Assembly: GCF_000179635.2 (NCBI RefSeq)
Contig: NC_014833.1
Span: forward strand, 1,650,001-1,682,000
Direction of reading: 5' to 3'
Source: Ruminococcus albus 7 = DSM 20455
GTDB taxonomy: Bacteria; Bacillota; Clostridia; Oscillospirales; Ruminococcaceae
DNA: 32,000 nt
Of the stretch, positions 2,182 through 32,000 are shown piece by piece; position 1 is the stretch's first letter, and every line of letters starts with the position of its first letter. The notes below the pieces were generated by a model. The model did no database searches, had not been told where the DNA came from, and saw only the letters and a program-made list of their open reading frames with translations. Position numbers and translations under genes: made by a program.

Positions 2182-4503
2182 ATGAATATATTGAAAAAAG
2201 CAGCACTCAGCGCAATGGCAGCAGTCATGGCGATAACAGGGCTTGCAGCCACTGTCCCGTCTTTGGAGGTCGGTGCAGAACACTACGGAGAAAATGAACT
2301 GACCGCTGAACTTGAGCAGATTGCAGCTTTGAAGAAGACCGTTTTAAATGATTATAAAACGGGCAAGTTTACGCAGTATACAGCCCCATCCGAGTGGAGT
2401 GTGCTGTGTGTAAAGTTCAGCGATGTTACGTTTAATAAAGGAACGTCTGGCGAAAGGCGTTATACAATCCCGCATAACAGTGATGCAAACACTGTCATTG
2501 ACCATGGAATTCAGAGATTTGAAGAAACAATGGAAGATATGTCCAATGGTCAGGTTGATTTTAAAATCACTACAATTTGGGTAGATGAACCTGTTAAAGT
2601 AGTATATAATCACTTTGGATACGGAGAAATCATAAGCCAGATTAAACAGGTCATCCCGTACAATTCGTTTGATTCTGTATTCTTTTTCAGCAGTCAGGAA
2701 GGCACAAATGGAATGACATATGACAATTTAGCAGGTAATACTTTTGGTCATTCATATGTTCAGCCTTTTAACATTGCTGCTGAGATGAAAGCCATTAAGA
2801 ATCACTATACAATCGAACAAGAGGAAAAAGAATGCTGGACCTGCGGTATTATGACACATGAATTTTTCCATCAGGTTGATGCAGCTGCAAAGGAAGTGCT
2901 GGGCGAAACGAATTTTCCGATGTGTCATGATTATCAGGTAAACGGCAATAGGCTGCCAGATGAAAAGGTTAACGATCCAAAGTACGGATATCTGGTGAAA
3001 GGAGAAACCGGAAAATATGACTCCCTGCTTGTGAATAAAAATAAGTTCAAATACGTGATAGGAAAATATCCGGATTATCTCGGTGACTATTATGAAGCAT
3101 TCTTCAGAGGAGAAATTTACTATCAGGAATCTTCTACAAAACAGGTCAGAAAAGGTATGTTCCCATCTATGTGGCGTTATTTAGACAGAACTGCACGTTT
3201 GAATCGATATAATTACACAATTCGTAACGTCGAAACCGGAAACTATCTCAAAAAGGAAGATGAGGTTGACGTGCCTGGTGCTTCCGTATTGAGTAGTGTA
3301 AAGACAACAGATCTGTTCTCGGAGAATGTACAATGGAAATTAACTGCTAATCTCTCTGCAGCAGATCCAGCTGTATTTCAGTTGATTCCGGCAGCCGATA
3401 CAACGCAGTTGATTCGAGCAGAAAAAGGTTCACCGTACGGTACTGCTGCACTTTATAGATCCGGTTGGGGAACGGCTGAGACTGCAAACAAGGGATTTGG
3501 ATTTAAACTTGTTCCAACAACGGATTCCAAGGGCAACTTCGCTTACAGGATTCAGAGCACCCTTGATGTTTTCAAGAACTGCTATTTCCGTGATAACGGC
3601 AATGGCAGCGTGTGCATTGAATCCAATACCAAGAACAACACATGGGATATCGAGAAAATAGGTATCCAGTCCGGCAAATACTATATCAAGAATCTCAAAA
3701 CCAGAGGCGCTCTGACCGTCAGCAATAACGCTGCTGCGATCACCGAGTATTCAAACGGTAATGGCAATGTCAATCAGGAATGGATGATTATGGAGGATAA
3801 GAACGGCTTCTTCAACATCTATTCTGCTGTTGCAAATACAAACCTTTATTTCGACGTTGTGGATAACAACGCGCTTGAAGGCAACAAGGTTCAGCTTTAT
3901 GGTAAAAGCACGAGGTACGCTGATGCACAGCTTTTCCAGTTCAAAAAGAACTGCAGCGGTTTCTACACCATTATTTTCAATCGCAACCCCGAACTTTGTA
4001 TTGCATGGAATGCGAACAAGAATCAGATGGAACTCCAGAAGATTAACGGTTCTGCTGAACAGACATGGGATATCGGACAGACTCAAAAGACACCGTCAAT
4101 CCAGTCAGGCAAATATTACAATATCAAAACTGCTGACGGCGAATACCTTAGTTGGAACGGTTCGACTGTTACCAAATCCGCATCTGCTGCAAAGTGGAAG
4201 ATTACGGACAAGGGTAACGGTTACTACTGGATCGAAGCGAACACCACAAACAGCATCCGATTCCTCGATGTGTTTTATTCCAAGAATGAGGAAGGTACGC
4301 AGATCAGAGTCTGCACGGATACCACGCTTTGCGCAGATGCAGAAGGTGCGCGCTATGCACAGAACTGGGCATTTGTTCCGAATGCTGACGGCACTCTTAA
4401 GATCATGCCGAAGCTGACCTTTGCAAGAGGTCTGAAATTCAGCGGTACTAACGCACAGCTTTCTAGCACGCCTGACAGTTTCACGCTGGTTCTTGCAAAA
4501 TAA
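2182..4503 (+). CDS. Secreted putative zinc metallopeptidase (HEXXH) with about three C-terminal ricin-B-type beta-trefoil lectin domains
   Basis: RBS GAAAAGGAAGGAG lies upstream of ATG 2182. The signal peptide is MNILKKAALSAMAAVMAITGLAATVPSLEVGA. The HEXXH motif is in CGIMTHEFFHQVD. Repeated QxW-type motifs (VQWKL, NQEWMI, AQLFQF, EQTWDI, AKWKI, AQNWAF) are spaced as in ricin-type lectin repeats. The ORF-track start at 1999 would include the promoter. Confidence 0.85.
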   Translation: MNILKKAALSAMAAVMAITGLAATVPSLEVGAEHYGENELTAELEQIAALKKTVLNDYKTGKFTQYTAPSEWSVLCVKFSDVTFNKGTSGERRYTIPHNSDANTVIDHGIQRFEETMEDMSNGQVDFKITTIWVDEPVKVVYNHFGYGEIISQIKQVIPYNSFDSVFFFSSQEGTNGMTYDNLAGNTFGHSYVQPFNIAAEMKAIKNHYTIEQEEKECWTCGIMTHEFFHQVDAAAKEVLGETNFPMCHDYQVNGNRLPDEKVNDPKYGYLVKGETGKYDSLLVNKNKFKYVIGKYPDYLGDYYEAFFRGEIYYQESSTKQVRKGMFPSMWRYLDRTARLNRYNYTIRNVETGNYLKKEDEVDVPGASVLSSVKTTDLFSENVQWKLTANLSAADPAVFQLIPAADTTQLIRAEKGSPYGTAALYRSGWGTAETANKGFGFKLVPTTDSKGNFAYRIQSTLDVFKNCYFRDNGNGSVCIESNTKNNTWDIEKIGIQSGKYYIKNLKTRGALTVSNNAAAITEYSNGNGNVNQEWMIMEDKNGFFNIYSAVANTNLYFDVVDNNALEGNKVQLYGKSTRYADAQLFQFKKNCSGFYTIIFNRNPELCIAWNANKNQMELQKINGSAEQTWDIGQTQKTPSIQSGKYYNIKTADGEYLSWNGSTVTKSASAAKWKITDKGNGYYWIEANTTNSIRFLDVFYSKNEEGTQIRVCTDTTLCADAEGARYAQNWAFVPNADGTLKIMPKLTFARGLKFSGTNAQLSSTPDSFTLVLAK

Positions 4504-5266: not shown

Positions 5267-7090
5267 ATGAAAAGTAAAAAAATCATTTCAGGTCTGTTGG
5301 CATTGAGCCTGGTATTTGGTGGGGCTGTGGTGCCGAGTGCAGTAATAGGTAATTCTGTTATCTCTGCAAGTGCGAGCAGCATTTGTGATGATTCCTTGTT
5401 TATTAGTTATGGTGGTAATCATGCGGTTGATTTTACTTCGGAGGATAATCACTATTCTTATTATATCTTCAAAGATGGTACAGTTTACTTATTTGAAATC
5501 CAGGGATTATATGATGATACTGGTGAATGGCATAAATATGATGAGGAGATGGTAATGCCAAGTGAGATCGATGGCAAAGCAGTAACCTGTATCGGATATG
5601 CTGCTGTAGGTACTAATTCGATCGTAAAAAAAATAACGGTCCCCGAAGGCATTACAATGATCGATAATGGTGCTTTTCAATCTAGTTATAGTCTTGAAAG
5701 CATAGATTTACCTGACACAGTAACATATATTGGTGATTATGCATTTGAATGTGATGAAAAACTTAAAAGCTTTAAGATCCCTCCAAAAGTAACTACAATA
5801 AATAATTTAACTTTTATGGGATGTAAAAGTCTTACATCTGTATCAATACCGGATGGTGTGACTAGTATTGGTGATTATGCATTTGAATACTGTGAAAGCC
5901 TTCCGTCAGTTAATATACCGGATAGTGTTACTAGTATTGGTGACGGTTGTTTTTATGGATGTGTAAATCTTAGAAGTATAGTTATCCCTGCAAGTGTAAC
6001 GAGTATTAGTAAAAATGCATTTGTTAAAGATGAATATTATGAAAATAACGAGATAAAATATCGCCCTTTGAAAAATCTAACAATTTATTGCTACAAAGGA
6101 TCATACGCTGAGGAGTATGCAAAAGCAAACGGATTAAAATATTGTTTATTAGATCAGGGTTTTGTTTACAAGCAGCTTGACGATAATACCATTGAGATAA
6201 TTAAGTATGTCGGTAATGATACAGAAGTCAATATACCAAGCAAAATTGACAATATTCCTGTAACAAGTATTCATTCCGCTGCATTTTATGGCTCTAATAC
6301 AATTAAGAGTGTTGTTATACCGGATAGTGTTGTTTCCTTAGGTGATGCGGTTTTCGGTGGCTGTACAAACCTTGAGAACGTATCTTTATCAAATAACGTA
6401 AGATCTATTGGTCAAGTTGTATTTTCAGGTTGCTCATCTCTGAAAGAGATCGTGATACCTGATAGTGTTACAAGCATTGATTCAGCTGCTTTCCTTGATT
6501 GTATCGGTCTTGAGAAAGTATATTTATCTAATAATTTGGAAACTATCGGTGCTTCAGCATTTAATGGATGTAAATCACTGAAAGAAATAGTGATACCTGA
6601 TAGCGTGATATCTATTGAATCTGCCGCATTTGTTAATTGCACAGGTCTTGAAAGTGTCACTATTCCAAAGAATGTTGTATCAATAGGTGAATATGCATTT
6701 GCCGTATGCGATAATCTGACTATATATTGCTACACAAATTCTGCAGCTCAGCAGTATGCTATTGATAATGAGATCAAATATGAGCGTATAGATGCATCAA
6801 AGCCATTTGTTCCTACTTACCCCACAAACATAAAAGTAGATCACAGCGAACAGTACCACCAGGTAAGATTCACATGGGACAAGGTTGAGAATGCAGAAAA
6901 GTACGGCATAGCTGTATACCTCGCAGGCAAGTGGAGAATACAGACACAGAATATCACCGGTACGATTTACACTACTCCCAAGAACCTTACTCCCGGCAAG
7001 ACCTACAAGGTAGCTATCGCTGCTAAGGTGAACGGTCAGTGGGATGTTAATAATGCTATCAAGAATGCTGTTACTGTTACAGTAAAGTGA
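5267..7090 (+). CDS. Secreted BspA-type leucine-rich-repeat surface protein with a C-terminal FN3-like module
   Basis: The signal peptide is MKSKKIISGLLALSLVFGGAVVPSAV. About 23-aa repeats of the form IPDSVTSIGDYAFxxCxSLxSV recur across two blocks, and the periodicity is visible at nucleotide level. The C-terminal 90 aa are FN3-like. Confidence 0.9.
   Translation: MKSKKIISGLLALSLVFGGAVVPSAVIGNSVISASASSICDDSLFISYGGNHAVDFTSEDNHYSYYIFKDGTVYLFEIQGLYDDTGEWHKYDEEMVMPSEIDGKAVTCIGYAAVGTNSIVKKITVPEGITMIDNGAFQSSYSLESIDLPDTVTYIGDYAFECDEKLKSFKIPPKVTTINNLTFMGCKSLTSVSIPDGVTSIGDYAFEYCESLPSVNIPDSVTSIGDGCFYGCVNLRSIVIPASVTSISKNAFVKDEYYENNEIKYRPLKNLTIYCYKGSYAEEYAKANGLKYCLLDQGFVYKQLDDNTIEIIKYVGNDTEVNIPSKIDNIPVTSIHSAAFYGSNTIKSVVIPDSVVSLGDAVFGGCTNLENVSLSNNVRSIGQVVFSGCSSLKEIVIPDSVTSIDSAAFLDCIGLEKVYLSNNLETIGASAFNGCKSLKEIVIPDSVISIESAAFVNCTGLESVTIPKNVVSIGEYAFAVCDNLTIYCYTNSAAQQYAIDNEIKYERIDASKPFVPTYPTNIKVDHSEQYHQVRFTWDKVENAEKYGIAVYLAGKWRIQTQNITGTIYTTPKNLTPGKTYKVAIAAKVNGQWDVNNAIKNAVTVTVK
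6818..7087 (+). other. C-terminal FN3-like module, copy A (shared with the xylanase)
   Basis: YPTNIKVDHSEQYHQVRFTWDKVENAEKYGIAVYLAGKWRIQTQ...TPKNLTPGKTYKVAIAAKVNGQWDV is about 70% identical by eye to 16310-16585 on the minus strand. Confidence 0.6.
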
Positions 7091-7121
7091 TAGGTTTCAT
7101 CGACATAATTTTATAAACACC

Positions 7122-21304: not shown

Positions 21305-24300
21305 GTGAGTGAGAGTATGGATTATAGAAAGAATTGGAAGAAACGAAGTGTTTCAGTTGCATTGAGCGCAGCAATGCTAACAAACATGGCGGCTGTTATC
21401 CCAACGGCAGCAATTGAAGAATTCAAGAAAAATAATGAGATAATTCAATCTCTGAAGAAGCAGGCAGCACATGAAGAGGCTTTTGACTACGCTCTTATCA
21501 CAGGGAATGCTGATACGACTCTTGAAATGAATGCTCAGAAGATCGACATAACAGGTGATGTGCATTCAAACAGCAATTTTATCTACCGAGGATCGGAGAT
21601 CGTTATCAACGGAGCTTGTGAAGCATCAAAAAATACAACAATTAGTGTTTCCGATAGTGAGTATCTTGACAAGATATATTCCGTTGATGATGATACAGAA
21701 CTTGTTTCAGTTCCTGACTATGCGGAAGAAATTCATGCGCATTTGCTTGAGCAAAATGTTCCCGAGTATTACGATTGGACGAGTTTTAGTGACCGCTATG
21801 TTGATATAAGCAACGGAATATGCGTAGATGGAACGTTAGGCGTTTACTCAAGCCAGTTCACAGGAAACGGCATTATTTATGCAAAGAACAGCATAAACTA
21901 TTCAGTTGGTGAAATCAGCAGTGCGGATGGCGGTATGGTCGTACTTTGTGCCGCAAACGGAGATATAAACATTTATGCCTCAAACACCACTATCAATGGT
22001 ATCATCTATGCTCCGCACGGAACAGTGACTATTACAGGGCAGAATGTCACGATAAACGGCAGGATAATAAGCGACAAGTTTAATTTCTGGGGTTCAAACC
22101 TTACCATTAATAAAGGCGAAGGTGATCTGGATCTTTTGGATTTTCTTTTCCTTCCGGCTCCCGAAATATCAAGCGATGGAGAATTCAAGGAGAACAGAAA
22201 AGTAACTTTCGATATTTCTCAGACAGAAAAAATCGATAAAGTTGCAAAAGAAGAAACAGTGTGGACTTTCTCCAAAGTTGATGGCGAAACCAAAACAGAA
22301 GCTGTTCAAGGAGAAGATTATGTCATTGATGAAAGTTCGTCTGACGGATTCATCAAAAACATGATCTTCAAAAAATATGGTACTTATGAAGTTTCGGTCA
22401 CTGTGAGATCCGGTGATTCGGAAAAGACAGGTTTGCAAACTATTGAAGTCATCCCGGATGTTGCTCCTATTGTTGATTTCACGTTAGACAATGATTATTA
22501 TTATCGTGACCCCGAGAATGGCAGCAAAGCCTCAATTCCCCTTAAGGACCATTCATATTCTGTAGACAATGATGAGATAGGTCAGCGTATATGGACTGTT
22601 TATTATGATGCTGATAATAACGGAGTTTTCGATGAATCTGAGGGAGAGATCATAAGTGATTCTAATGAGAGCGAACTGACTTATACAACTGGGAAGGTAG
22701 GCAAATACAAGGTAGAACTTACGTCTGTAGAAACGTTCAGTGATACTATCCCGAGCCTTATAACACAAGATGATTACAGACGTGCTGATACCGGCGATAA
22801 ATCTATTGAAAGCAAGACTTTTACAGTAGGAAACATTGCTCCCGAAGCAAGTGTTGATGTGGGGCTTGCAAAAGATGTTGACCTTGTTTTCACAGTCGGC
22901 TCGGCAGATGTAGAAAAGATACAGCTTTATGCCGATAGGATAGAGCAGATAAAGGCAGAACTTAAAGAACAAGGCTACAATGTATATCTGTCAACAGTTT
23001 CCACTTCAAGTCTTACGGCAAAAGATACATTTGCGTGGGACGAATATGACCATTATGATTATCAGGATTGGTATAACATTAAAAGACCAAAACATATAAT
23101 CTATGACGAGGACAATATTCAGATGGTAGGATATTGTTGGCAGGCATTGCGTGACTTTCTTTATGTTGAAGATAAAAATGAATCACAGAAAATATTCACT
23201 TTTGACATTCAGCGTGATAAGACCGACTGGCACAGCATGGAAGGCGGCGGTTTTCTTTTCAATACTTCTATAGAAGATGGAGTTATCAAAGGTTTTTATG
23301 TGCTTATAACATGCTCCGGACTTCAACTTTCTCAGATAAAAGGGGTAAGTGTAGAGGACTTCCAAAACGGAAAGAGAAATTCTATAACCGCTTTAAAAAC
23401 TTTCAAACTTGACAACCTGTACGATGAGCATAACATCAAGATAGTTGTTGATAAAAAGTCATTGTCAGTATGGGACGGAGAGAAACTCGTTATTGACAGC
23501 TACTCTCTTCCCGAAAATGATTATGGATATGGTTATGGACCGATAACCTCTCATGCAAGTCACGGCTGCACTCAGCAATCTTACTTTACTTTTGCTAATA
23601 TAAAAATGCAGACCATATCCGGTGAAAAGCTCTCCGATGTTTTGGCAAACTATGATTGGAAGAGCAAAACAAGCCGATATGTTATAAATCTGAGTGATTC
23701 CGAGCTTGATGAATTTGAAACCGATGAGGAGCTTGCTGCTGTTTCAAAGCAGATACTTGAAAACGAGCTGAACTTCATAGGTATAGGAAATGGTGAAAAC
23801 AGCGCTCAGTATACAGATATTATAAATTCGGCTGCGGGAAGCGGTATATATCTTGATGCTGAGGATACTGATAACTCTCCCGAAAACCTTTCAAATTATG
23901 TGGTAAGCAATGAGAATTCAAAGAATTTCTCAGTAGATTATTATGTTGCAAAAGATCAGCCTATCAGATATATCGATTCGTACAAGGATCATGAGAAAGA
24001 CCCTATGTACTCTGAAAGTTGGGAATACGAGTACGACCCGTCTGTATTCTATAATGAGTCCGGCAGTACCGAGGTCAAAAAATTCTCTTCCGATAAAGCA
24101 ATAACTGTTTTTGAAGAGGCAGGCGCATATACTATGCGTCTAAAGGTAAGAGACAATCCGGTCGGCGATAATGACTCATTGGATGAGTACAGATTATGGT
24201 CAGGCGAAAAGTCTTATGAAAAAGTTCTGATGGTCCATAACAGACCTGTTGCGGAACTTACCGTGAATGTATCGGAAAACCCGAATGACAAAAATACGGT

Positions 24301-27300
24301 GATAATCAACACACAGGATAATTGTTATGATAAGGATCATATTTCTGATGCAGATAAAGGGATCGTATCCAAATCATATAAATGGAAAAAACTCTATGAT
24401 GCAGAATGGACAGACGGTCCTATCCCTAACAAGGTAGAGATCGGCGGTATTTATATTATCTGCCTTACAACGGTTGACAAAGAAGGTCAGATAAGCTATC
24501 CGAATATTCAGATAATCAATACAGCAGATTTCCTTGTTCCGGAAGAGGCGGAAGATAAAGAGCCGCCTGTTATCGAGCTTGAACTTGAAAAAACTAAAGC
24601 GAATGCGGGCGAGAGTGTAAAGATCACTGCGTATGCTTCGGATAACATAGGTGTCGATACCTTTGAACTCTACATTGACGGAGAGCGTGTCCTTGACCAT
24701 GCAGGCAGAATTTTCTACACGGGTGATAAAACCGAAACAGTAGAGATAAAAGCAATTGCAGTAGATATTAACGGTAATCGCTCTGAAGAAACACAGCAGT
24801 TAACGATCGTTGACAATAGAGATAAGACCGCTCCTACAGTAGAGATAGAATCTCCCGAAGACAGAGCGATAATGGATTTCTCTGTTCAGTTTGTTGGCTC
24901 GGCTTATGATGACACTCTGCTCAAAAATTATAGGTTGGAATACAGAAGACAGGGTGCAGGCAGCTTTAACATTATCGCCGAATCAGATCATGAAGTAAAA
25001 AGCGGAATACTCGGCGAATGGAATGTCGAGGGGCTTGAATCGGGAATTTATGAGGTCAAGTTGTCGGCAGAGGACGGTGCAGGAAACTCCTCATATGTTA
25101 TCTATCAATATGAACTGAAGCCGAATAAAGAGAGCGGTATTGTAGATACTGAAACCGTTGACCATGAAGCTCCTGTCATCATTCTGACATCTTCTAAAGA
25201 TAAAGCAGATGTTGGTGAAGAAGTTAAGGTGACAGTTGATGTAAAGGACGAATCCAAAATAGATGCGATCCAAGTCTACATTGACGATGAACTTATTATG
25301 GACGGTTCTGGAAAGATAACGTTCAGCAGAGGTGAGCCGGTAGTTTCCAAAATAAAGGTTTACGCTTCCGATGAATTTGGAAATATATCTGTAAAGGAAC
25401 TTTCTGTAATATTCGTTGATGACAGCGACTACGATCCGCCTGTTACCAAAATAGACACACCAGAGCATGCAAGCACCATAAGCGGCAGCGTTGATATTAC
25501 AGGAACAGCAGCTGATGAAACGGAATTATTAAGGTATAGGCTGGAGTATAAGGCTCAGAACGAAGAATCTTATACAGTCTTTGCCGAAATGTATAATCAG
25601 GTCGAAAACGGCACGCTCGGAACATTCAACACTTCTGCACTTGCAGACGGTGTGTATGATATTCGCCTGACAGCAGAAGATAAGAGCGGTAATTCCTCAT
25701 ATGTTCAGTACTCTTACATTGTAGACAACAGTGAAAATAACAATAATAACGATGAGGATACTATCAAGCCTGTCATAGATCTGGTACTCACTAAGACCGA
25801 AGCTGATATAGGCGAGGAAGTGACGGGTATCGTTTCTGTGACCGATAATAAGAAGCTTGAAGCAGTAAAGGTATATCTTGATGACGAGATCATACTTACA
25901 AGCAGCGGCAGCTTTACATTTACCAGAGGAAAAGCCGCAGCTGCAAAAATAAAAGTATATGCTGTTGACAGTGCCGGGAATATGGCAACAGAAACTGCGG
26001 AATGCGTATTTATTGATAACAGTGATAAAAAAGCACCTACTGCAAAAATAAGCTCCCCCAAGCACGCAAGTGAGGTCAGCGGAAAGGTCGATATCAAGGG
26101 TACGGCAAAGGACGATGAGGAACTTTTAAGATATACTCTCGGCTACAGACTTTCCGGAACAGACGATGTCATCATTTTGGCTGAAAAGACCGAAGCTGTG
26201 GATAATGATATTCTCGGCATACTTAATACCGAAAAGCTTGTAAACGGCGTGTATGACATTGTTCTTACAGTTGAGGATAAGGGCGGCAATAAAACTGTAG
26301 CCCAAATCTCATATATTGTAAATAATGAACAAGAGGGAACAGGTCTTATTGAAACTGATGACGACAAGGACATTATCGACCCTGTAATAAAACTTGCATT
26401 GTCAAAGAATGTTGCGGGGATCGATGATAAAGTAAAGGCAAGCTTTACCGTTACAGATAATAAGAAAGTAAGTTCGATAAAAGTATATGTTGACGGTAAG
26501 GAAACAGAATATAAGAATAATCAAGTTGAATTCACTTCAAATAAAGTCGGAAAAATAGAAGTGAAGGTCGTTGCTGTTGACAGCAGCGGAAATAAGGCAG
26601 AGAAAAAAGCGGTTTGCAGTTTCTATAATTTGAGTGATAACACTCCGCCCGAATTGGATATAGTTTCTCCCGAATATTACGAAACAGTAGAAAAGCCGAC
26701 TGACATTATCGGTTCTGTCTATGATGAGACCGAGCTTGCCTATTATAAAGTCGAGTATCGTCCCAAGGGAGCAGAAAAGTACACAACACTTAATAAGAGT
26801 ACCGAAGAAAAACATAATGAATCCTTGGCTTACTTCGATACTACGGTTTTGGCAAACGGCATTTACGAGTTTAAGGTGATAGCTGAGGACTTTGGCGGCA
26901 ACACTACAACTTGTGAATTCCAATATGTAGTTGACGGAACACTTAAAGTCGGGAATACAAACCTCGGATTTGAAGATGTTAATACCAAAATATCCGGCAT
27001 AGGAGTTTCGGTCGCAAGATACTACAGCAGTTCAAACAAGCTGTCGGGCGATTTCGGCATGGGCTGGACACTCGGTCTTGGCGGTATAAGACTGTACGAA
27101 ATGAGCAGTATTGCAGAAGGTTGGGAACAGCAGTATGATCGTCAGATTGGCAATTTCTTAAGCACTGTTTATACTGTCAGTGAATTAGTTTCACACGATG
27201 TTGTAATAACATACGGAGACGGAACTTGTGAACGGTTCAAAGTGAAATTAGACCCTGCAAGTCACTCTTTTGTTCCGCTGCAAAACACTTCAATAAAATT

Positions 27301-30300
27301 TGAAAGCCCGACAGGGTCAAAGAATAAGCTTGAAGTTTACGGTAAGAATAAAGTTTATTTGGATGGTTACTTAGGCGAAACAGAACTTCTGGATTATAAT
27401 ACCGATAAATTCGTGGTGCAGAAATACAAGCTGACTCTTGAAGATGAAACAGAAGTCATCATCGACAGGGATAAGGGTGTTGAGAGCATAACGGATAAAT
27501 TCGGTAACACCATAAAAGTAACCGAGAACGGCTATACAGACCCTAATGGTGTAGGCTTGACATTTGAACGTGATCCACATGGAAGACTCACCTCTGTGAC
27601 TGAGCCTGACGGAAAGACAACTAAGTATACTTATGATGAGAACGATGATCTTATCAAAGTGACAGATCCTATGGGGTATTCTGTAAGCTACGTCTATGAC
27701 AGCGAACATAACCTCATAAGCATGATCGACTCCAGAGGTGTTGAAGCCGCTCACAATGAGTATGATGAAAGCGGACGTTTAGTTGCTACAGTAGATGCTA
27801 ACGGAAACAGAATGACTTATGAGCATGATGTTGACGGAAGAACAGAAATTGTAACAGATAAGCTTGGAAATAAAAGTGTCTATGTTTACGATGATAAGGG
27901 CAACGTCCTGAAATGCACCGATGCAAACGGCAACACCACATATGCAGAATATGATAAATACGGTCACATAAAGAGCAGTACCGATGCTCTCGGAAATGTT
28001 ACGCAGTATCAGATGACCGCAACAGGTGAAGTGCTGTCATTAACAAACGCTGTAGGAAATACGGTAACAAACAGCTACAATGATAAGAAGCAGCTTACAT
28101 CTGTAACGGCAATGGGCGTTACTCAGATGATCGTAAATTATGATGAGGATGGTTTGCTCACAAGTACAAAGGACGCTATGGGCAACGGCACTTATTATGA
28201 TTATGACAGTTCCTATCGTATAAAGGGTATCTCGGACGAGATCGGCTCTTTCATCAATTTCACATATGACAGTAAAGGAAATGTAATTTCATCTACTGAT
28301 GGGGCAGGTGAAACTGCAACATTTACATACGATGATTCGGATAATTGCATAAGCAAAACAGTTGTAAAGACCACGGAGAAAGGCTCAGAAAATATTACCG
28401 AAAACTATGAATATGATGCTATGAACAGACTTGTAAAGGTTATTTATGCCGATGGTTCTGTTACAAGCGTGTCATATGACGGAAACGGTAATATGACGTC
28501 CGCTGTAGACGAAAAAGGCAGAAAAACATCGTATGTGTATGACAACAACTGCAATCTTGTAAAGATAACCTACTGCGACAATACGAGTGAAACATTCGGA
28601 TATGATGCAGAGGGCAGAAATACTACAGCAACGGACAGAATGGGCAGAACAATCACCATGACCTATGACAAGGTCGGAAATCTGCTCACAAAAACTTATC
28701 CTAATGGGATATCCGAGAACTACAGTTACGATGCAAAATACAGATTGACGTCTGTTACAGATGTTAATGGCGGTACGACATCATATGAGTATGATGAGAT
28801 CGACAGAAACACGGCAATAGTTGATGCACTCGGAAACAGAACCGAGTTTGCTTACAATTCAAGCTCTATGCTTTCTTCTATGACAGATTCGAAAGGTGAT
28901 GTGTGGAAGTATGAATATGATGCAAACGGAAACAGAACTAAGGTGATAATGCCGGACGGCACAAGCATCTCTTCCGAATATGATGCAAGAGGCAGAGTTA
29001 CCAAGCAGACAGACCAAAACGGCTATTCCACAAGTTACGCTTATGACGGTGCTGACAGGCTTGTATCTGTAACAGATGCAGTCGGCAGCAAGTGGGTGTA
29101 TACTTACAGCGAAGTAGGCGAGCTCACTTCTGTAACAGACGCAAACGGAAATACAACGTCATATGAATATGACAATATGGGCAGAGTTGTCAAGACCACA
29201 AATGCGGCGGGCAAGACAGCTGAATGCACATATGATGACAGCGGAAATGTTCTTACATCGACTGACTATTCCGGCACGACAACGACTTATACTTATGACA
29301 GCCTTGACAGATTGATCAAGCAGGATATTGACGGAGAAGTTACCGAATTTGCTTACACAAGCGGAGGACTTCTTTCCTCGGTGACCGACAGCACCGGAAC
29401 TATCAGTTATACCTATAACAATACCGATGGGTTGAGTAAGGTCAAGCTGGCAGATGGTACAGAGATAAAGTACAGCTATTATAAGTCCGGTAATCTTAAA
29501 ACTGTATCTACGGCTTACGGCGATACTACCTTCGGCTATGACAAGATGGACAGGCTGACAAGGGTCGTTGACAAAAACGGTGTAGCTACGCTTTATGAGT
29601 ACGATGCCAACGGAAACAGGACTGCTGTAAAATATGCAAACGGAATAACCACGACTTTTGCCTACAATGACGTAAATCAGCTTATCAGTGAAAAAACAGT
29701 TGACAAAGACAACAATGTTGTAGTACAATATATTTATACGTTAGGCAAAGCAGGCGAACGACTGAAAGTTACCGAACCCGATAAGGTGACAGAGTACGGC
29801 TATGACGAACTCTACAGGCTGACATCGGAAAAGGTTACAAAGGACAAGAAAACTACCACAACTACTTACACCTACGATAATGTAGGAAATCGTCTGACTA
29901 AGACCGAAAACGGTACTACTAACAAGTACAAGTACAATTCGCTGAATCAGCTTGTTTCGGAGAGCGGTGTTACAAACAGCTATGATGACAACGGCAATCT
30001 GATAAAGCAGGTTGAGAACGGCAAGACCACGACCTATACCTTTGACAAGCAGAACAGGCTCGTCAGAGCAACCATTTCGAGCGGTCAGAATGTTACGGTC
30101 GAGGAGTATAGGTACGATTACGCAGGCAACAGAACTGCAAAAATAACCGAGGGCGAAACTACCAATTATGTAGTTGATACCAACAGTGCGCTTGCTCAGG
30201 TCCTTTATGAAACTGACGGCACGGGCAGCTTGAAAACCTATTACACCAGAGGCAGTGAGCTTATTAGCTTACAGCGTGAGCACGAAGAACGCTACTATTT

Positions 30301-31822
30301 GTATGACGGTCACGGCAATGTCAGAAGACTTACCGACGAGGACGGTGCTGTAACCGATACCTACGATTATGATGCGTTTGGAAACCTTACAGAGCATACG
30401 GGCGAGACCGAGAACAGCTATCTCTATTGCGGTGAACAGTATGATGCAAATACAGGTTTCTACTATCTCCGTGCAAGATATATGAACCCGTCAACGGGGA
30501 CATTTATCTCGATGGACAGCTATCAAGGCTCGATGTTTGATCCTGTAAGTCTGCATAAGTATCTGTATGCTAATGCGAATCCGGTGATGAATTGCGACCC
30601 GACAGGTTATTTCACGATTGGGGAATGTGATGTCAGTGCAGCTATTCAAGGTGTTCTGGATAAGCTGATTACTCCTAAACTTATTCAGGTATTTAATCGT
30701 ATCAACGATCTTGCCACTATTTATGAAACAGGTAAGCAAGTTGTAATGATCTTGACAGACCCTGATATGTCTGCATGGGATGTTGTGTTTGCCCTTGGTC
30801 GTGGTGTTATCACAGGTTTGTTCATTAACCATATGTGTGCTATGAAACGCATTGGACCTATCATAAGTAAAATTATGGTTGGTTACGGTCTTGTGTCACA
30901 ATGGGAAAGCATAATGGATGCCGCCAAAGACGGAGATTGGGATTTAGTTGCAACTCGTTCTATACAGTTTGTGGTTCAGCTTATCACAATGCACCAAAAC
31001 TGCTTTACCGGGGATACTCTGGTTGCGGCAGAGGACGGACAGATACGCATTGACGAAATTAAAGTCGGCGATAAGGTTTGGGCATATAATGTTGAAACCG
31101 GAGAAACCGAGCTTAAAGGAGTTAAGCAAGTCTACATTCACGAAACAGATGAGCTTTTACACCTATACACTTCTGTTGGTGCAATAGATACTACTTCTAA
31201 TCACCCATTTTACGTGCTTGGAGAAGGCTGGGTTGCCGCAGGTGACTTGGCTGTCGGCGATGAGATCTACTCTCTTGACGGAACGATTGGTATTGTCACC
31301 GGTTCTCAGTTTGAAAAGCTTGATGTGCCTATCAAGGTTTATAATCTTGAAGTTGCTGACTTCAATACATACTTTGTCGGCGATAATGCGGTTTTGGTGC
31401 ATAATTATTCTGATGGTGCAGATACAATGCACTATCCTAAGAAGGCACAAGATATCGATTTACGTGGTACAGGAACCAACTATCGTGATGCATTAGATAT
31501 CGCATTTGAACAGACTGGTTATCCAAAAGAACAGTTTATGGTTTCAAAGTGGGCAAGAGATATAAATGGTAAGTCTATACCAGTGGAATACATGGGACCG
31601 AATGGTTCATATGTTGACATAGATATAGCTCATTTGTCAAGTTTTGATAGAAATGGTAATTGGGCTACTGGACCAGATGTGCCACATGTAGGTTGGCAAA
31701 CTGGAAGAAGCAATAAAACAACAGGTCATATTTTACTTGATGATGTTCCAACAGGAAGAGATTATTGCTATTCTGATTTATCATCGCAAATCGCCAAAAT
31801 ATTAAAGCAATTCGGTTTATAA
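21305..31822 (+). CDS. Giant secreted RHS/YD-repeat polymorphic toxin (about 3,500 aa)
   Basis: The ORF is uninterrupted for 10.5 kb. The likely start is ATG 21317 (RBS AGGAAGTGAG) and the signal-like N-terminus is KKRSVSVALSAAMLTNMAAVIPTAA. Dozens of YD repeats are present (YxYDxxGNxxxxxD). The RHS core ends in YYLRARYMNPSTGTFISMDSY...HKYLYANANPVMNCDPTGY, followed by a HINT domain and a C-terminal extension. Confidence 0.95.
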   Translation: MSESMDYRKNWKKRSVSVALSAAMLTNMAAVIPTAAIEEFKKNNEIIQSLKKQAAHEEAFDYALITGNADTTLEMNAQKIDITGDVHSNSNFIYRGSEIVINGACEASKNTTISVSDSEYLDKIYSVDDDTELVSVPDYAEEIHAHLLEQNVPEYYDWTSFSDRYVDISNGICVDGTLGVYSSQFTGNGIIYAKNSINYSVGEISSADGGMVVLCAANGDINIYASNTTINGIIYAPHGTVTITGQNVTINGRIISDKFNFWGSNLTINKGEGDLDLLDFLFLPAPEISSDGEFKENRKVTFDISQTEKIDKVAKEETVWTFSKVDGETKTEAVQGEDYVIDESSSDGFIKNMIFKKYGTYEVSVTVRSGDSEKTGLQTIEVIPDVAPIVDFTLDNDYYYRDPENGSKASIPLKDHSYSVDNDEIGQRIWTVYYDADNNGVFDESEGEIISDSNESELTYTTGKVGKYKVELTSVETFSDTIPSLITQDDYRRADTGDKSIESKTFTVGNIAPEASVDVGLAKDVDLVFTVGSADVEKIQLYADRIEQIKAELKEQGYNVYLSTVSTSSLTAKDTFAWDEYDHYDYQDWYNIKRPKHIIYDEDNIQMVGYCWQALRDFLYVEDKNESQKIFTFDIQRDKTDWHSMEGGGFLFNTSIEDGVIKGFYVLITCSGLQLSQIKGVSVEDFQNGKRNSITALKTFKLDNLYDEHNIKIVVDKKSLSVWDGEKLVIDSYSLPENDYGYGYGPITSHASHGCTQQSYFTFANIKMQTISGEKLSDVLANYDWKSKTSRYVINLSDSELDEFETDEELAAVSKQILENELNFIGIGNGENSAQYTDIINSAAGSGIYLDAEDTDNSPENLSNYVVSNENSKNFSVDYYVAKDQPIRYIDSYKDHEKDPMYSESWEYEYDPSVFYNESGSTEVKKFSSDKAITVFEEAGAYTMRLKVRDNPVGDNDSLDEYRLWSGEKSYEKVLMVHNRPVAELTVNVSENPNDKNTVIINTQDNCYDKDHISDADKGIVSKSYKWKKLYDAEWTDGPIPNKVEIGGIYIICLTTVDKEGQISYPNIQIINTADFLVPEEAEDKEPPVIELELEKTKANAGESVKITAYASDNIGVDTFELYIDGERVLDHAGRIFYTGDKTETVEIKAIAVDINGNRSEETQQLTIVDNRDKTAPTVEIESPEDRAIMDFSVQFVGSAYDDTLLKNYRLEYRRQGAGSFNIIAESDHEVKSGILGEWNVEGLESGIYEVKLSAEDGAGNSSYVIYQYELKPNKESGIVDTETVDHEAPVIILTSSKDKADVGEEVKVTVDVKDESKIDAIQVYIDDELIMDGSGKITFSRGEPVVSKIKVYASDEFGNISVKELSVIFVDDSDYDPPVTKIDTPEHASTISGSVDITGTAADETELLRYRLEYKAQNEESYTVFAEMYNQVENGTLGTFNTSALADGVYDIRLTAEDKSGNSSYVQYSYIVDNSENNNNNDEDTIKPVIDLVLTKTEADIGEEVTGIVSVTDNKKLEAVKVYLDDEIILTSSGSFTFTRGKAAAAKIKVYAVDSAGNMATETAECVFIDNSDKKAPTAKISSPKHASEVSGKVDIKGTAKDDEELLRYTLGYRLSGTDDVIILAEKTEAVDNDILGILNTEKLVNGVYDIVLTVEDKGGNKTVAQISYIVNNEQEGTGLIETDDDKDIIDPVIKLALSKNVAGIDDKVKASFTVTDNKKVSSIKVYVDGKETEYKNNQVEFTSNKVGKIEVKVVAVDSSGNKAEKKAVCSFYNLSDNTPPELDIVSPEYYETVEKPTDIIGSVYDETELAYYKVEYRPKGAEKYTTLNKSTEEKHNESLAYFDTTVLANGIYEFKVIAEDFGGNTTTCEFQYVVDGTLKVGNTNLGFEDVNTKISGIGVSVARYYSSSNKLSGDFGMGWTLGLGGIRLYEMSSIAEGWEQQYDRQIGNFLSTVYTVSELVSHDVVITYGDGTCERFKVKLDPASHSFVPLQNTSIKFESPTGSKNKLEVYGKNKVYLDGYLGETELLDYNTDKFVVQKYKLTLEDETEVIIDRDKGVESITDKFGNTIKVTENGYTDPNGVGLTFERDPHGRLTSVTEPDGKTTKYTYDENDDLIKVTDPMGYSVSYVYDSEHNLISMIDSRGVEAAHNEYDESGRLVATVDANGNRMTYEHDVDGRTEIVTDKLGNKSVYVYDDKGNVLKCTDANGNTTYAEYDKYGHIKSSTDALGNVTQYQMTATGEVLSLTNAVGNTVTNSYNDKKQLTSVTAMGVTQMIVNYDEDGLLTSTKDAMGNGTYYDYDSSYRIKGISDEIGSFINFTYDSKGNVISSTDGAGETATFTYDDSDNCISKTVVKTTEKGSENITENYEYDAMNRLVKVIYADGSVTSVSYDGNGNMTSAVDEKGRKTSYVYDNNCNLVKITYCDNTSETFGYDAEGRNTTATDRMGRTITMTYDKVGNLLTKTYPNGISENYSYDAKYRLTSVTDVNGGTTSYEYDEIDRNTAIVDALGNRTEFAYNSSSMLSSMTDSKGDVWKYEYDANGNRTKVIMPDGTSISSEYDARGRVTKQTDQNGYSTSYAYDGADRLVSVTDAVGSKWVYTYSEVGELTSVTDANGNTTSYEYDNMGRVVKTTNAAGKTAECTYDDSGNVLTSTDYSGTTTTYTYDSLDRLIKQDIDGEVTEFAYTSGGLLSSVTDSTGTISYTYNNTDGLSKVKLADGTEIKYSYYKSGNLKTVSTAYGDTTFGYDKMDRLTRVVDKNGVATLYEYDANGNRTAVKYANGITTTFAYNDVNQLISEKTVDKDNNVVVQYIYTLGKAGERLKVTEPDKVTEYGYDELYRLTSEKVTKDKKTTTTTYTYDNVGNRLTKTENGTTNKYKYNSLNQLVSESGVTNSYDDNGNLIKQVENGKTTTYTFDKQNRLVRATISSGQNVTVEEYRYDYAGNRTAKITEGETTNYVVDTNSALAQVLYETDGTGSLKTYYTRGSELISLQREHEERYYLYDGHGNVRRLTDEDGAVTDTYDYDAFGNLTEHTGETENSYLYCGEQYDANTGFYYLRARYMNPSTGTFISMDSYQGSMFDPVSLHKYLYANANPVMNCDPTGYFTIGECDVSAAIQGVLDKLITPKLIQVFNRINDLATIYETGKQVVMILTDPDMSAWDVVFALGRGVITGLFINHMCAMKRIGPIISKIMVGYGLVSQWESIMDAAKDGDWDLVATRSIQFVVQLITMHQNCFTGDTLVAAEDGQIRIDEIKVGDKVWAYNVETGETELKGVKQVYIHETDELLHLYTSVGAIDTTSNHPFYVLGEGWVAAGDLAVGDEIYSLDGTIGIVTGSQFEKLDVPIKVYNLEVADFNTYFVGDNAVLVHNYSDGADTMHYPKKAQDIDLRGTGTNYRDALDIAFEQTGYPKEQFMVSKWARDINGKSIPVEYMGPNGSYVDIDIAHLSSFDRNGNWATGPDVPHVGWQTGRSNKTTGHILLDDVPTGRDYCYSDLSSQIAKILKQFGL
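24563..26937 (+). repeat. Four tandem in-frame coding repeats of about 199-204 aa, each two beta-sandwich (Ig/FN3-like) units
   Basis: Repeat starts are at 24563 (PPVIELELEK), 25169 (APVIILTSSK), 25766 (KPVIDLVLTK) and 26378 (DPVIKLALSK). Each contains ..V.V.A.D..GN.. then P.V.I.SP......G.V.I.G.A.D...L..Y.LEY...G......A......G.LG..NT..L.NG.Y...L.A.D..GN. The copies are diverged, not recent duplicates. Confidence 0.85.
26950..30610 (+). other. RHS shell: N-terminal plug-like segment, YD repeats and the RHS-associated core ending at DPTGY
   Basis: The segment starts with ARYYSSSNKLSGDFGMGWTLG. YD repeats run from about 27500. The DPTGY motif is at 30596-30610. Confidence 0.9.
31001..31405 (+). 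other. HINT (pre-toxin HINT-like) autoprocessing domain
   Basis: CFTGDTLVAAEDGQIRIDEIKVGDKVWAYN...TSNHPFYV...GWVAAGDLAVGDEIY...VYNLEVADFNTYFVGDNAVLVHN spans 135 aa. It begins with Cys, ends in HN, and is followed by Tyr, which is not a splice nucleophile. Confidence 0.8.
31406..31819 (+). other. C-terminal 138-aa putative toxin domain, family not recognised
   Basis: Its position after the RHS core and HINT domain points to a toxin role. The sequence is YSDGADTMHYPKKAQDIDLRGTGTNYRDALDIAFEQTGYPKEQFMVSKWARDINGKSIPVEYMGPNGSYVDIDIAHLSSFDRNGNWATGPDVPHVGWQTGRSNKTTGHILLDDVPTGRDY.., and I cannot match it to any known toxin motif. Confidence 0.55.
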
Positions 31823-31835
31823 GGGAGTGCTATTA

Positions 31836-32000
31836 ATGATTGAAGATTTAATAGAATATTGTGTTAAAGGTGATATTAGCTATCGAATTATATCAAACGA
31901 TGAGAAAGAAAAGATTAAAGGTTATATAAATGAACGATATCTTGATAAAAATAGAAAAAGTGGACGTACACTTTTCGACCATTTAAAAATCAGCGAAAGT
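31836..32000 (+). CDS. Candidate cognate immunity protein, N-terminal 55 codons; the 3' end lies outside the window
   Basis: RBS AAGGGAG (31821-31827) overlaps the toxin stop. ATG 31836 lies 13 nt after the stop. The frame is open to the window end (MIEDLIEYCVKGDISYRIISNDEKEKIKGYINERYLDKNRKSGRTLFDHLKISES). It has no signal peptide. Confidence 0.5.
   Translation, partial: MIEDLIEYCVKGDISYRIISNDEKEKIKGYINERYLDKNRKSGRTLFDHLKISES

Follow-up and report, generated by a model that had tools for sequence, protein, structure and literature searches.

How does a very large secreted toxin of a Gram-positive bacterium release its toxic tip, and what might the protein segment do that lies between the devices expected to release it? 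This question is raised by a locus of Ruminococcus albus 7 = DSM 20455, of which we analyzed a window of 32,000 nucleotides (nt), that is, the whole stretch taken from positions 1,650,001 to 1,682,000 of contig NC_014833.1. Near the end of the window, a predicted Sec-exported polymorphic toxin with an Rhs/YD shell terminates in an Rhs autoprotease region, a helical spacer, a HINT domain and an RNase toxin. Homology and conservation show two predicted self-cutting modules in series ahead of this toxin and a candidate immunity gene. We consider it rather probable that nt 30596-31405, which encode the C-terminal part of the Rhs/YD-shell toxin ahead of its tip, form a constant cassette for 'processing and delivery', made of two cutters and a helical spacer with a generic delivery role, and carrying Ntox47 as its cargo. 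The features on which the argument relies are the following:

21305 to 31822, plus strand: Sec-exported Rhs/YD-shell polymorphic toxin gene, 3505 amino acids (aa), from the list of open reading frames (ORFs), its translation and Pfam
30368 to 30607, plus strand: Rhs-associated core TIGR03696, aa 3022-3101, region of the shell-closing aspartyl autoprotease (NCBIfam, 63.6 bits against a cut-off of 32.5)
30476 to 30598, plus strand: span of the predicted Rhs catalytic residues R3058 (30476-30478), D3071 (30515-30517) and D3098 (30596-30598), from motif and conservation
30608 to 30613, plus strand: predicted Rhs autoproteolytic site Y3102/F3103, by analogy with RhsA
30611 to 30673, plus strand: post-cleavage segment, the first ~21 residues after the site (FTIGECDVSAAIQGVLDKLIT), common to gammaproteobacterial RHS-HINT proteins (hhalign)
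30674 to 31000, plus strand: lineage-specific all-alpha spacer domain, aa 3124-3232, unannotated (AlphaFold2, family searches)
30773 to 30904, plus strand: hydrophobic Gly/Ala-rich helical hairpin, aa 3157-3180 and 3183-3200 (hydropathy, alignment)
31001 to 31405, plus strand: A-type bacterial intein-like (BIL) or PT-HINT domain, C3233 to N3367, 135 aa (Pfam, phmmer, Foldseek, conservation)
31406 to 31822, plus strand: Ntox47 toxin domain, aa 3368-3505 and stop codon, a predicted BECR-fold RNase (Pfam PF15540)

Two predicted cutters in series

An initial annotation, made from the DNA letters alone, had proposed two autoprocessing modules in series, and homology together with conserved catalytic residues supports this proposal. 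The RHS core ends in NCDPTGY precisely where that annotation had placed it (aa 3096-3102, nt 30590-30610, with D3098 at nt 30596-30598), as part of a longer motif, P3093-VMNC-D3098-PTG-Y3102, that fits PxxxxDPxG[L/W/Y]. R3058 sits 13 residues ahead of D3071, and the two aspartates are 27 residues apart, compared to 22-24 in solved proteins. Each of R3058, D3071 and D3098 is at least 90% conserved among 64 relatives. RhsA employs D1324 and D1346, and its cut falls right behind W1350, with which the five-residue DPxGW ends (PMC8765631); the catalytic residues of BiTLP are R2103, D2116 and D2140 (PMC13018210). The R. albus triad mirrors the Arg-13-Asp...Asp arrangement of BiTLP, with D3071 and D3098 corresponding to D1324 and D1346 of RhsA. 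Since the catalytic pattern of these proteins is present, cleavage is predicted after Y3102: by analogy, the core would be closed by an intact Rhs aspartyl autoprotease that should cut at this position.

The second module is a HINT domain of 135 aa that runs from CFTGDTLV to VLVHN (C3233 at nt 31001 to N3367 at nt 31405), the very limits first assigned to it, with T3297-x-x-H3300 as block B and H3366-N3367 as its end. A profile search for PT-HINT, which had been suggested at that stage, returned PF07591 far above cut-off (E 4e-28, 98.7 bits against 27.7, profile positions 1-136 of 137), with E 9e-27 for the match at aa 3239-3367. In a phmmer search, the BIL domain of Clostridium thermocellum (2LWY) matched the whole 135-aa domain with 48% identity (E 1.3e-31). 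A HINT fold had been named as the check on this assignment, and structure modeling agrees with it: 2LWY is the top Foldseek match of the AlphaFold2 model (E 1.1e-14, TM-score 0.77), followed by BIL2, mini-inteins and hedgehog 1AT0, all at probability 1.00, in a result list that is dominated by the HINT part of the model. Block means of the model's confidence score (pLDDT) mostly lie between 72 and 92 in this domain and are low only over its last ~15 residues. The model in question was built with the 64-sequence alignment; a single-sequence run on aa 3098-3505 had a mean pLDDT of 39.5 and was unusable.

Catalytic columns of the HINT domain are kept almost without exception: Cys1 in 64 of 64 relatives, the block-B TxxH in 63-64 and the terminal His-Asn in 60-61. 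To judge from its residues, the domain is an A-type BIL, and it possesses each residue that the N-S acyl shift (at Cys1) and Asn cyclisation (at N3367) require. One relative, P0025, has Tyr in place of Cys1 (SQYFTAERRIATDDG) and may be a decayed or recombined cassette. The residue that follows the domain is Tyr3368, as initially read, and it is not a nucleophile in most relatives either (Y in 23, K in 9, S in 5, D in 4, R in 4, E, Q and T in 3 each, and others). With no +1 nucleophile, the domain is expected to cut rather than splice. The features do not fit a class 1 intein: the +1 residue is Tyr, it varies across the family, and the C-extein is a polymorphic toxin.

The initial annotation went further and held splicing to be impossible. 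This stands insofar as cleavage products predominate in BIL domains, and is too strong insofar as two papers, known here by their titles (Dassa 2004 and Aranko 2013, cited in PMC7664689 and PMC7765530), concern BIL splicing or ligation without a +1 nucleophile. Their subject is the C. thermocellum BIL that is 48% identical to the domain studied here, and one may thus imagine that the BIL splices itself out and joins the spacer to the toxin, the product being a 'translocation domain-toxin' fusion instead of a free toxin. We regard this as most improbable. Reviews describe N- and C-terminal cleavage products as the main outcome for BIL domains, which bacterial proteins carry in their hypervariable parts (PMC7664689, PMC7765530, PMC4725963), and state that A-type BILs do not ligate efficiently (PMC7664689, PMC7765530); moreover, the highly variable +1 residue argues against a conserved ligation chemistry. 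Self-cleavage is documented for the CdiA BIL of Pseudomonas syringae (PMC4725963).

The C. thermocellum BIL has Cys1, TxxH and the C-terminal VLVHN in common with the R. albus HINT; in both, no nucleophile is obligatory at +1, and a hypervariable C-terminus adjoins the domain. By contrast, the R. albus HINT is set behind an Rhs core and a helical spacer of a specific kind, and is known here from sequence and model. A HINT or BIL domain immediately before a polymorphic toxin is also found in CdiA (P. syringae class I) and in Streptomyces UmbC (PDB 8W20). These differ in their stalks (filamentous haemagglutinin repeats and ALF repeats) and secretion routes, and neither has an upstream Rhs protease. 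RhsA of Pseudomonas protegens, Tse5 of Pseudomonas aeruginosa and BiTLP, on the other hand, share with the R. albus protein a YD cocoon closed by a two-Asp autoprotease, with DPxG[LW] as their cut site. In BiTLP and, according to the accessible part of the Tse5 report, in Tse5, a hydrophobic membrane-active sequence directly follows this site, as a hydrophobic sequence does here. However, the hydrophobic segment of these proteins is the toxin itself with no HINT after it, whereas that of R. albus precedes a HINT domain and a soluble RNase. The R. albus protein also lacks PAAR, VgrG and parts of a type VI secretion system, and has a cargo of 44.5 kDa compared to ~15 kDa in RhsA.

The combination of modules has been tabulated before. 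The accessible part of Zhang et al. 2012 (PMC3482391) proposes HINT as a toxin-releasing autopeptidase, and a table there lists Ntox47 with 'Proteases: HINT; Repeats: RHS' and type II secretion system/Sec export in firmicutes, which is the same architecture. HINT-containing C-termini are also listed among bacterial teneurin-like YD-shell proteins in a 2026 paper. As RHS, HINT and Ntox47 have already been listed together, the overall architecture is not new. The same accessible part of Zhang et al. 2012 gives no description of a hydrophobic helical domain of ~105 aa between DPxGY and HINT, to which we now turn.

The spacer and its family

Between DPTGY and the HINT domain lie 130 residues (aa 3103-3232, nt 30611-31000), in exact agreement with the length first estimated. 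When a profile of this spacer was compared by hhalign with gammaproteobacterial RHS-HINT spacers, only columns 1-26 aligned (probability 96%, E 2.6e-9). The spacer thus falls into a post-cleavage segment that is shared with those proteins and a helical domain of ~105 aa that is specific to the lineage. For the same reason, a common origin of the hydrophobic part with the Gly/Ala-rich spacers of Gammaproteobacteria was considered and found unsupported. The gammaproteobacterial RHS-HINT proteins (contigs L029, L032-L034, L037, L048 and L049, from Arenicella, Marinobacter, Glaciecola and others) have only 64-76 aa from DPxG to Cys1; past the first ~26 residues, their spacers continue as a Gly/Ala-rich stretch with a basic tail that has no detectable relation to the Clostridial spacer.

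AlphaFold2 places spacer helices at approximately aa 3124-3151, 3157-3181, 3185-3208 and 3212-3229 or, numbered by spacer position and including an early helix, at 8-24, 27-54, 60-78(-84), 88-111 and 115-132. The pLDDT is low over the first 25 residues and ranges from 64 to 87 from position 30 onward. Searches for a known family gave little. Pfam had no match in aa 3098-3232 at E <= 1 or E <= 10, NCBIfam had a single chance-level match to a type III secretion protein (E 0.096, far below cut-off), and a spacer profile matched no PDB sequence even at E <= 10. The earlier suggestion of a pre-toxin domain of the PT-TG type (PF14449) was therefore not borne out, and we rejected this identity at the sensitivity of HMMER, with no Pfam match at E <= 10. 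PT-TG is likewise absent from the families reported for 41 family members, and Pfam finds none at E <= 10 in the pre-HINT segments of nine other lineages.

How far does this spacer extend beyond R. albus? We searched 1.84 billion representative proteins exhaustively by phmmer and obtained 40 clusters; 17 clusters reach E <= 1e-10, and almost all of the 40 span the full 134 residues. (Two word-indexed searches in which the spacer was the sole query gave just 3 and 11 matches, all to short fragments, and missed hundreds of long Rhs proteins that have the domain; these counts are an artefact of candidate selection and were not used as a family size.) Every genuine match shows the same succession of DP[TS]GY, 130-142 aa, CFTG[DE]TLV...VHN and a variable tail. 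Apparent members without HINT (P0012, P0016, P0033 and others) were examined and set aside as frameshifted or truncated contigs. In a single case, the 133-aa metagenome fragment P0003, the spacer end (...DWDLVA) is joined to an unrelated tail with no HINT; it may be a decayed or recombined cassette.

A profile built from the core end, spacer and HINT matched 785 proteins, the best 120 of which are almost all full-length; among these 120, some from Ruminococcus or Lachnospiraceae bear the NCBI name 'polymorphic toxin-type HINT domain-containing protein'. Across reference genomes and metagenome-assembled genomes (MAGs), the combination of spacer and HINT is confined to Clostridia, and matches to HINT only are found in many phyla. 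The closest genomic relatives come from MAGs of Ruminococcus, Oscillospiraceae and Lachnospiraceae, which, taken with the neighboring genes described below, agrees with a cellulolytic host of the Clostridium type from gut or rumen. As far as these sequences tell, the spacer is specific to Rhs-HINT toxins of Ruminococcus, Oscillospiraceae and Lachnospiraceae, and always precedes HINT.

Conservation within the family is strikingly uneven. Mean pairwise identity is 76% at the Rhs core end, 32% in the spacer, 61% in HINT and 13% after HN. In view of this collapse after HN, the boundary of polymorphism is the HINT C-terminus, unlike the classical DPxG border of other Rhs proteins. We distinguished 9 spacer classes, which pair with 34 toxin classes in many combinations, one toxin class being found with different spacers. 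Such free pairing means that the spacer is independent of its cargo. The toxin partners are mostly nucleases, RNases and deaminases (AHH, SHH, WHH, GH-E, colicin-DNase, barnase-type, Ntox21, Ntox47), and nuclease and deaminase toxins must reach the cytoplasm of their target.

The domain of ~105 aa is undescribed as a family in the literature searched, in Pfam and in NCBIfam. It merits an entry in the domain databases because it has none at present, and we see in this unannotated family a modest, testable lead: a compact and abundant family of gut and rumen Clostridia in which a hydrophobic helical domain always stands between an Rhs and an intein-like cutter, whatever the toxin.

A membrane role or a soluble adaptor

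What, then, might the spacer do? After Sec export the shell would fold, and the Rhs protease would cut after Y3102; the BIL domain would cut between N3232 and C3233 and/or between N3367 and Y3368, freeing a toxin of 15.4 kDa. The spacer, always coupled to HINT and shuffled against at least 34 toxin types, would serve as a generic delivery module rather than as the partner of a given toxin. The role that we favor, at somewhat less than even odds, is interaction with membranes, by which the spacer would help these mostly nucleic acid-targeting toxins to get to or through the membrane of the target cell while HINT detaches them. The staged release told in the initial annotation (opening of the shell, possible insertion of the hydrophobic segment, freeing of the toxin by HINT) is a plausible inference. 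Hydrophobic, membrane-active cargo inside a YD shell has a precedent in the C-terminal domain of BiTLP and, as far as the accessible part of its report goes, in Tse5.

The case for a membrane role comes from two stretches, AWDVVFALGRGVITGLFINHMCAM (aa 3157-3180, nt 30773-30844) and IGPIISKIMVGYGLVSQW (aa 3183-3200, nt 30851-30904), joined by a turn at K3181-R3182. Leaving the signal peptide aside, no other part of the 3505-aa protein is as hydrophobic as this hairpin, which reaches the 99.9th percentile of the protein's 21-mers. Polar or small residues recur every 3-4 positions in both helices, with an A-x3-G-x3-G stripe around the near-invariant Gly3167. We judged hydropathy by the Kyte-Doolittle 19-mer threshold of 1.6 and by Eisenberg 21-mer levels of 0.42 (candidate) and 0.68 (initiator); summed Hessa insertion free energies were given little weight, being uncalibrated to the point that the signal peptide itself scores +4.1. 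Within the family, the Kyte-Doolittle maximum attains 1.6 in 52 of 64 members, the Eisenberg mean hydrophobicity <H> attains 0.68 in 23 of 63, and the Eisenberg pair sum is at least 1.10 in 34 of 63. Some members, about a third of the relatives, have ~45 consecutive uncharged residues.

Several observations weigh against a membrane role. In the R. albus copy, the Kyte-Doolittle maximum of the hairpin is 1.47, under the classic 1.6; its Eisenberg <H> values, 0.52 and 0.46, are above the candidate level and below that of an initiator; and a charged residue is found inside each helix (R3166 in the first, K3189 in the second). The spacer is the least conserved of the constant parts, and an identity of 32% fits a plain spacer equally well. 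The compact helical bundle modeled by AlphaFold2 fits an ordinary soluble domain. The two cleavages may be constitutive after folding rather than staged. As to the opening of a shell, the cargo that follows Y3102 measures 403 aa and 44.5 kDa, and reported capacities are ~15 kDa for a three-turn Rhs cocoon and ~30 kDa for a four-turn Tc cocoon, so that full encapsulation, and hence the idea that a 'shell opens', is doubtful. Finally, the literature searched contains no experiment on the R. albus toxin or close relatives. The initial annotation had spoken of two strongly hydrophobic stretches: both are present at the positions quoted, and 'strongly' is somewhat overstated for this copy since absolute hydropathy is only moderate. 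Overall, the hairpin appears borderline transmembrane (TM) in R. albus and clearly TM-like in about a third of its relatives.

These same observations lead to a rival interpretation, in which the spacer is a soluble helical adaptor acting as a structured N-extein of HINT. Its hydrophobic stretches would form the packed core of a bundle with no membrane role, and both cleavages would be part of constitutive maturation. We take this as a serious possibility, one that we are nevertheless inclined to doubt. The modeled bundle is compact, with 4-5 helices at moderate confidence, and its helices have polar or small residues at a period of 3-4 (spacer positions 62, 66, 69/70, 73/74, 78, 82; 91/92, 98, 101/102), as expected of a soluble adaptor. 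Hydropathy below TM thresholds with charges within helices, low conservation of the spacer, and the predominance of cleaved products in the cited BIL studies all agree with it. Yet two and arguably three of the ~5 helices are strongly apolar, and the charge-free stretches of ~45 residues that a third of relatives possess would be hard to bury in such a small bundle. In addition, unrelated HINT toxins of Anaeroplasmataceae and Gammaproteobacteria also have hydrophobic Gly-rich segments before Cys1, which suggests selection for hydrophobicity as such. If the spacer were a mere spacer, the locus would encode an RHS-HINT polymorphic toxin of the textbook kind and would count mainly as a further weapon of cellulolytic bacteria of the Ruminococcus type.

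The Anaeroplasmataceae proteins, on three MAG contigs (L025, L026 and L028), are HINT toxins without RHS repeats, with strongly TM-like, Gly-rich pre-HINT segments whose Kyte-Doolittle 19-mer values reach 1.9-2.75. They are an independent case of a hydrophobic segment right before Cys1.

Similar segments have been noted elsewhere. In the accessible part of Zhang et al. 2011 (PMC3113570), a two-TM domain adjoins HINT in a C. thermocellum toxin, and two-TM segments in firmicute toxins are read as trafficking elements. Along this line, the R. albus hairpin could be a stop-transfer or helical-hairpin anchor in the producer's own membrane, leaving both ends outside, so that the HINT cut would shed the toxin from the cell surface. 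The protein indeed combines a Sec-type signal peptide with no wall anchor recognisable by Pfam, and the Anaeroplasmataceae segments are truly TM-like. We nonetheless hold such an anchor to be very unlikely: the Rhs protease would detach the shell from it, hydrophobicity is below the level expected for a translocon stop-transfer sequence, and solved Rhs structures place the sequence that follows DPxG within the shell.

The membrane role that we favor can also be given a far more specific form. The domain of ~105 aa would be an autonomous membrane-insertion or translocation module of Gram-positive gut and rumen Rhs toxins, which leaves the shell, inserts in the target cytoplasmic membrane and carries HINT and toxin across; folding of the intein-like domain would be delayed until then, and its cut would release the nuclease within the target cell. 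Taken as a whole, this scenario is unlikely. It would, if true, give secreted nuclease toxins of Gram-positive bacteria a means of entry that is self-contained and needs no receptor. To our knowledge, how such toxins cross the target membrane is still not settled. A hydrophobic hairpin flanked by amphipathic helices, beside an enzymatic cargo bound for the cytoplasm, is a property of translocation or pore-forming domains such as the diphtheria toxin T domain and colicin pore domains, in which the hairpin is buried. The analogy with the R. albus spacer is functional only: we detected no sequence or profile similarity, and the spacer has ~5 helices compared to 9-10 in these domains. Should the spacer be membrane-active, it would provide a small, portable entry module together with a natural, intein-like switch for timed release.

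Cargo exchange, immunity and the rest of the gene

As to the cargo, Ntox47 (PF15540) is matched with E 2e-25 and 89.8 bits, against a Pfam cut-off of 25, and with E 7e-23 at aa 3377-3483, and the accessible part of Zhang et al. 2012 (PMC3482391) assigns the family to the BECR class of RNase folds. The gene that follows is only partly contained in the window:

31838 to 32000, plus strand: candidate immunity gene, start only (first 54 codons), a small ORF located 16 nt past the toxin stop and behind GGGAG, running beyond the end of the window

Its full length, 151 aa, is seen on a contig that carries the identical toxin protein (L060, positions 6657-7112; logan:SRR059971_431). The candidate immunity protein was assigned to no known Imm family, its sole match being DUF6756 at E 0.002, below cut-off.

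The same contig extends beyond window position 32000 and reveals an orphan cassette of HINT, possibly with toxin, after the immunity gene (L060, 7252-7713). Homology of this cassette to the main gene starts ~14 codons before Cys1 (SIQLLLSLMSLHQN followed by CFTGETLV) and continues through HINT, with an overall column identity of 82% in a DNA alignment of 532 columns. This suggests a second role for HINT, as the handle through which toxins are exchanged by recombination. Carried to its limit, this view would make the linker end and HINT mainly a DNA homology handle for exchanging toxin/immunity cassettes, comparable to DPxGL or VENN elsewhere, with protein processing as a secondary matter. Besides the orphan cassette, we found many database matches that are orphan-like fragments starting 29-39 aa before DPxGY, and the drop in identity directly after VHN is as expected for such a handle. 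That exchange should be the principal function is improbable, however, since HINT catalytic residues, needless for a pure recombination handle, are kept in 60-64 of the 64 relatives. The two roles are in any event compatible, and a cassette that processes its protein may also guide the exchange of its cargo.

Upstream of the cassette, the toxin gene consists of a signal-peptide-like N-terminus, Ig-like modules and RHS repeats, in this order. The N-terminus resembles a Sec signal peptide, with MDYRKNWKKRS followed by a hydrophobic run at aa 19-37 that forms a hydropathy peak. A Pfam scan of the 3505-aa protein identified 24 stretches of RHS_repeat PF05593 (E 9e-132) and no LPXTG, SLH or dockerin match that would indicate a wall anchor; the YD-shell family TEN_YD-shell (PF25023) is also present in relatives. 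Minus-strand ORFs at 30491-30832, 30944-31141 and 31163-31450 overlap the C-terminal part of the gene and were taken as shadows of this strongly supported plus-strand gene.

Ahead of the shell, at ~24500-27000 (aa ~1080-1880), we observed four tandem units of ~190 aa, each composed of an Ig-like module (Big_7) and a DUF4625-like module (PVIEL...YIDGE... / ...YRLEY...). We presume that these units make up a stalk or a region for adhesion. The neighboring genes, between 1999 and 20789, encode a ricin-lectin protein, a BspA-type leucine-rich repeat protein, a dockerin-bearing subtilase, a Crp-family regulator, a CoA-disulfide-reductase-like protein with a rhodanese domain and a GH10 xylanase with CBM4_9, a set that indicates a cellulosome-producing genome of the Ruminococcus type.

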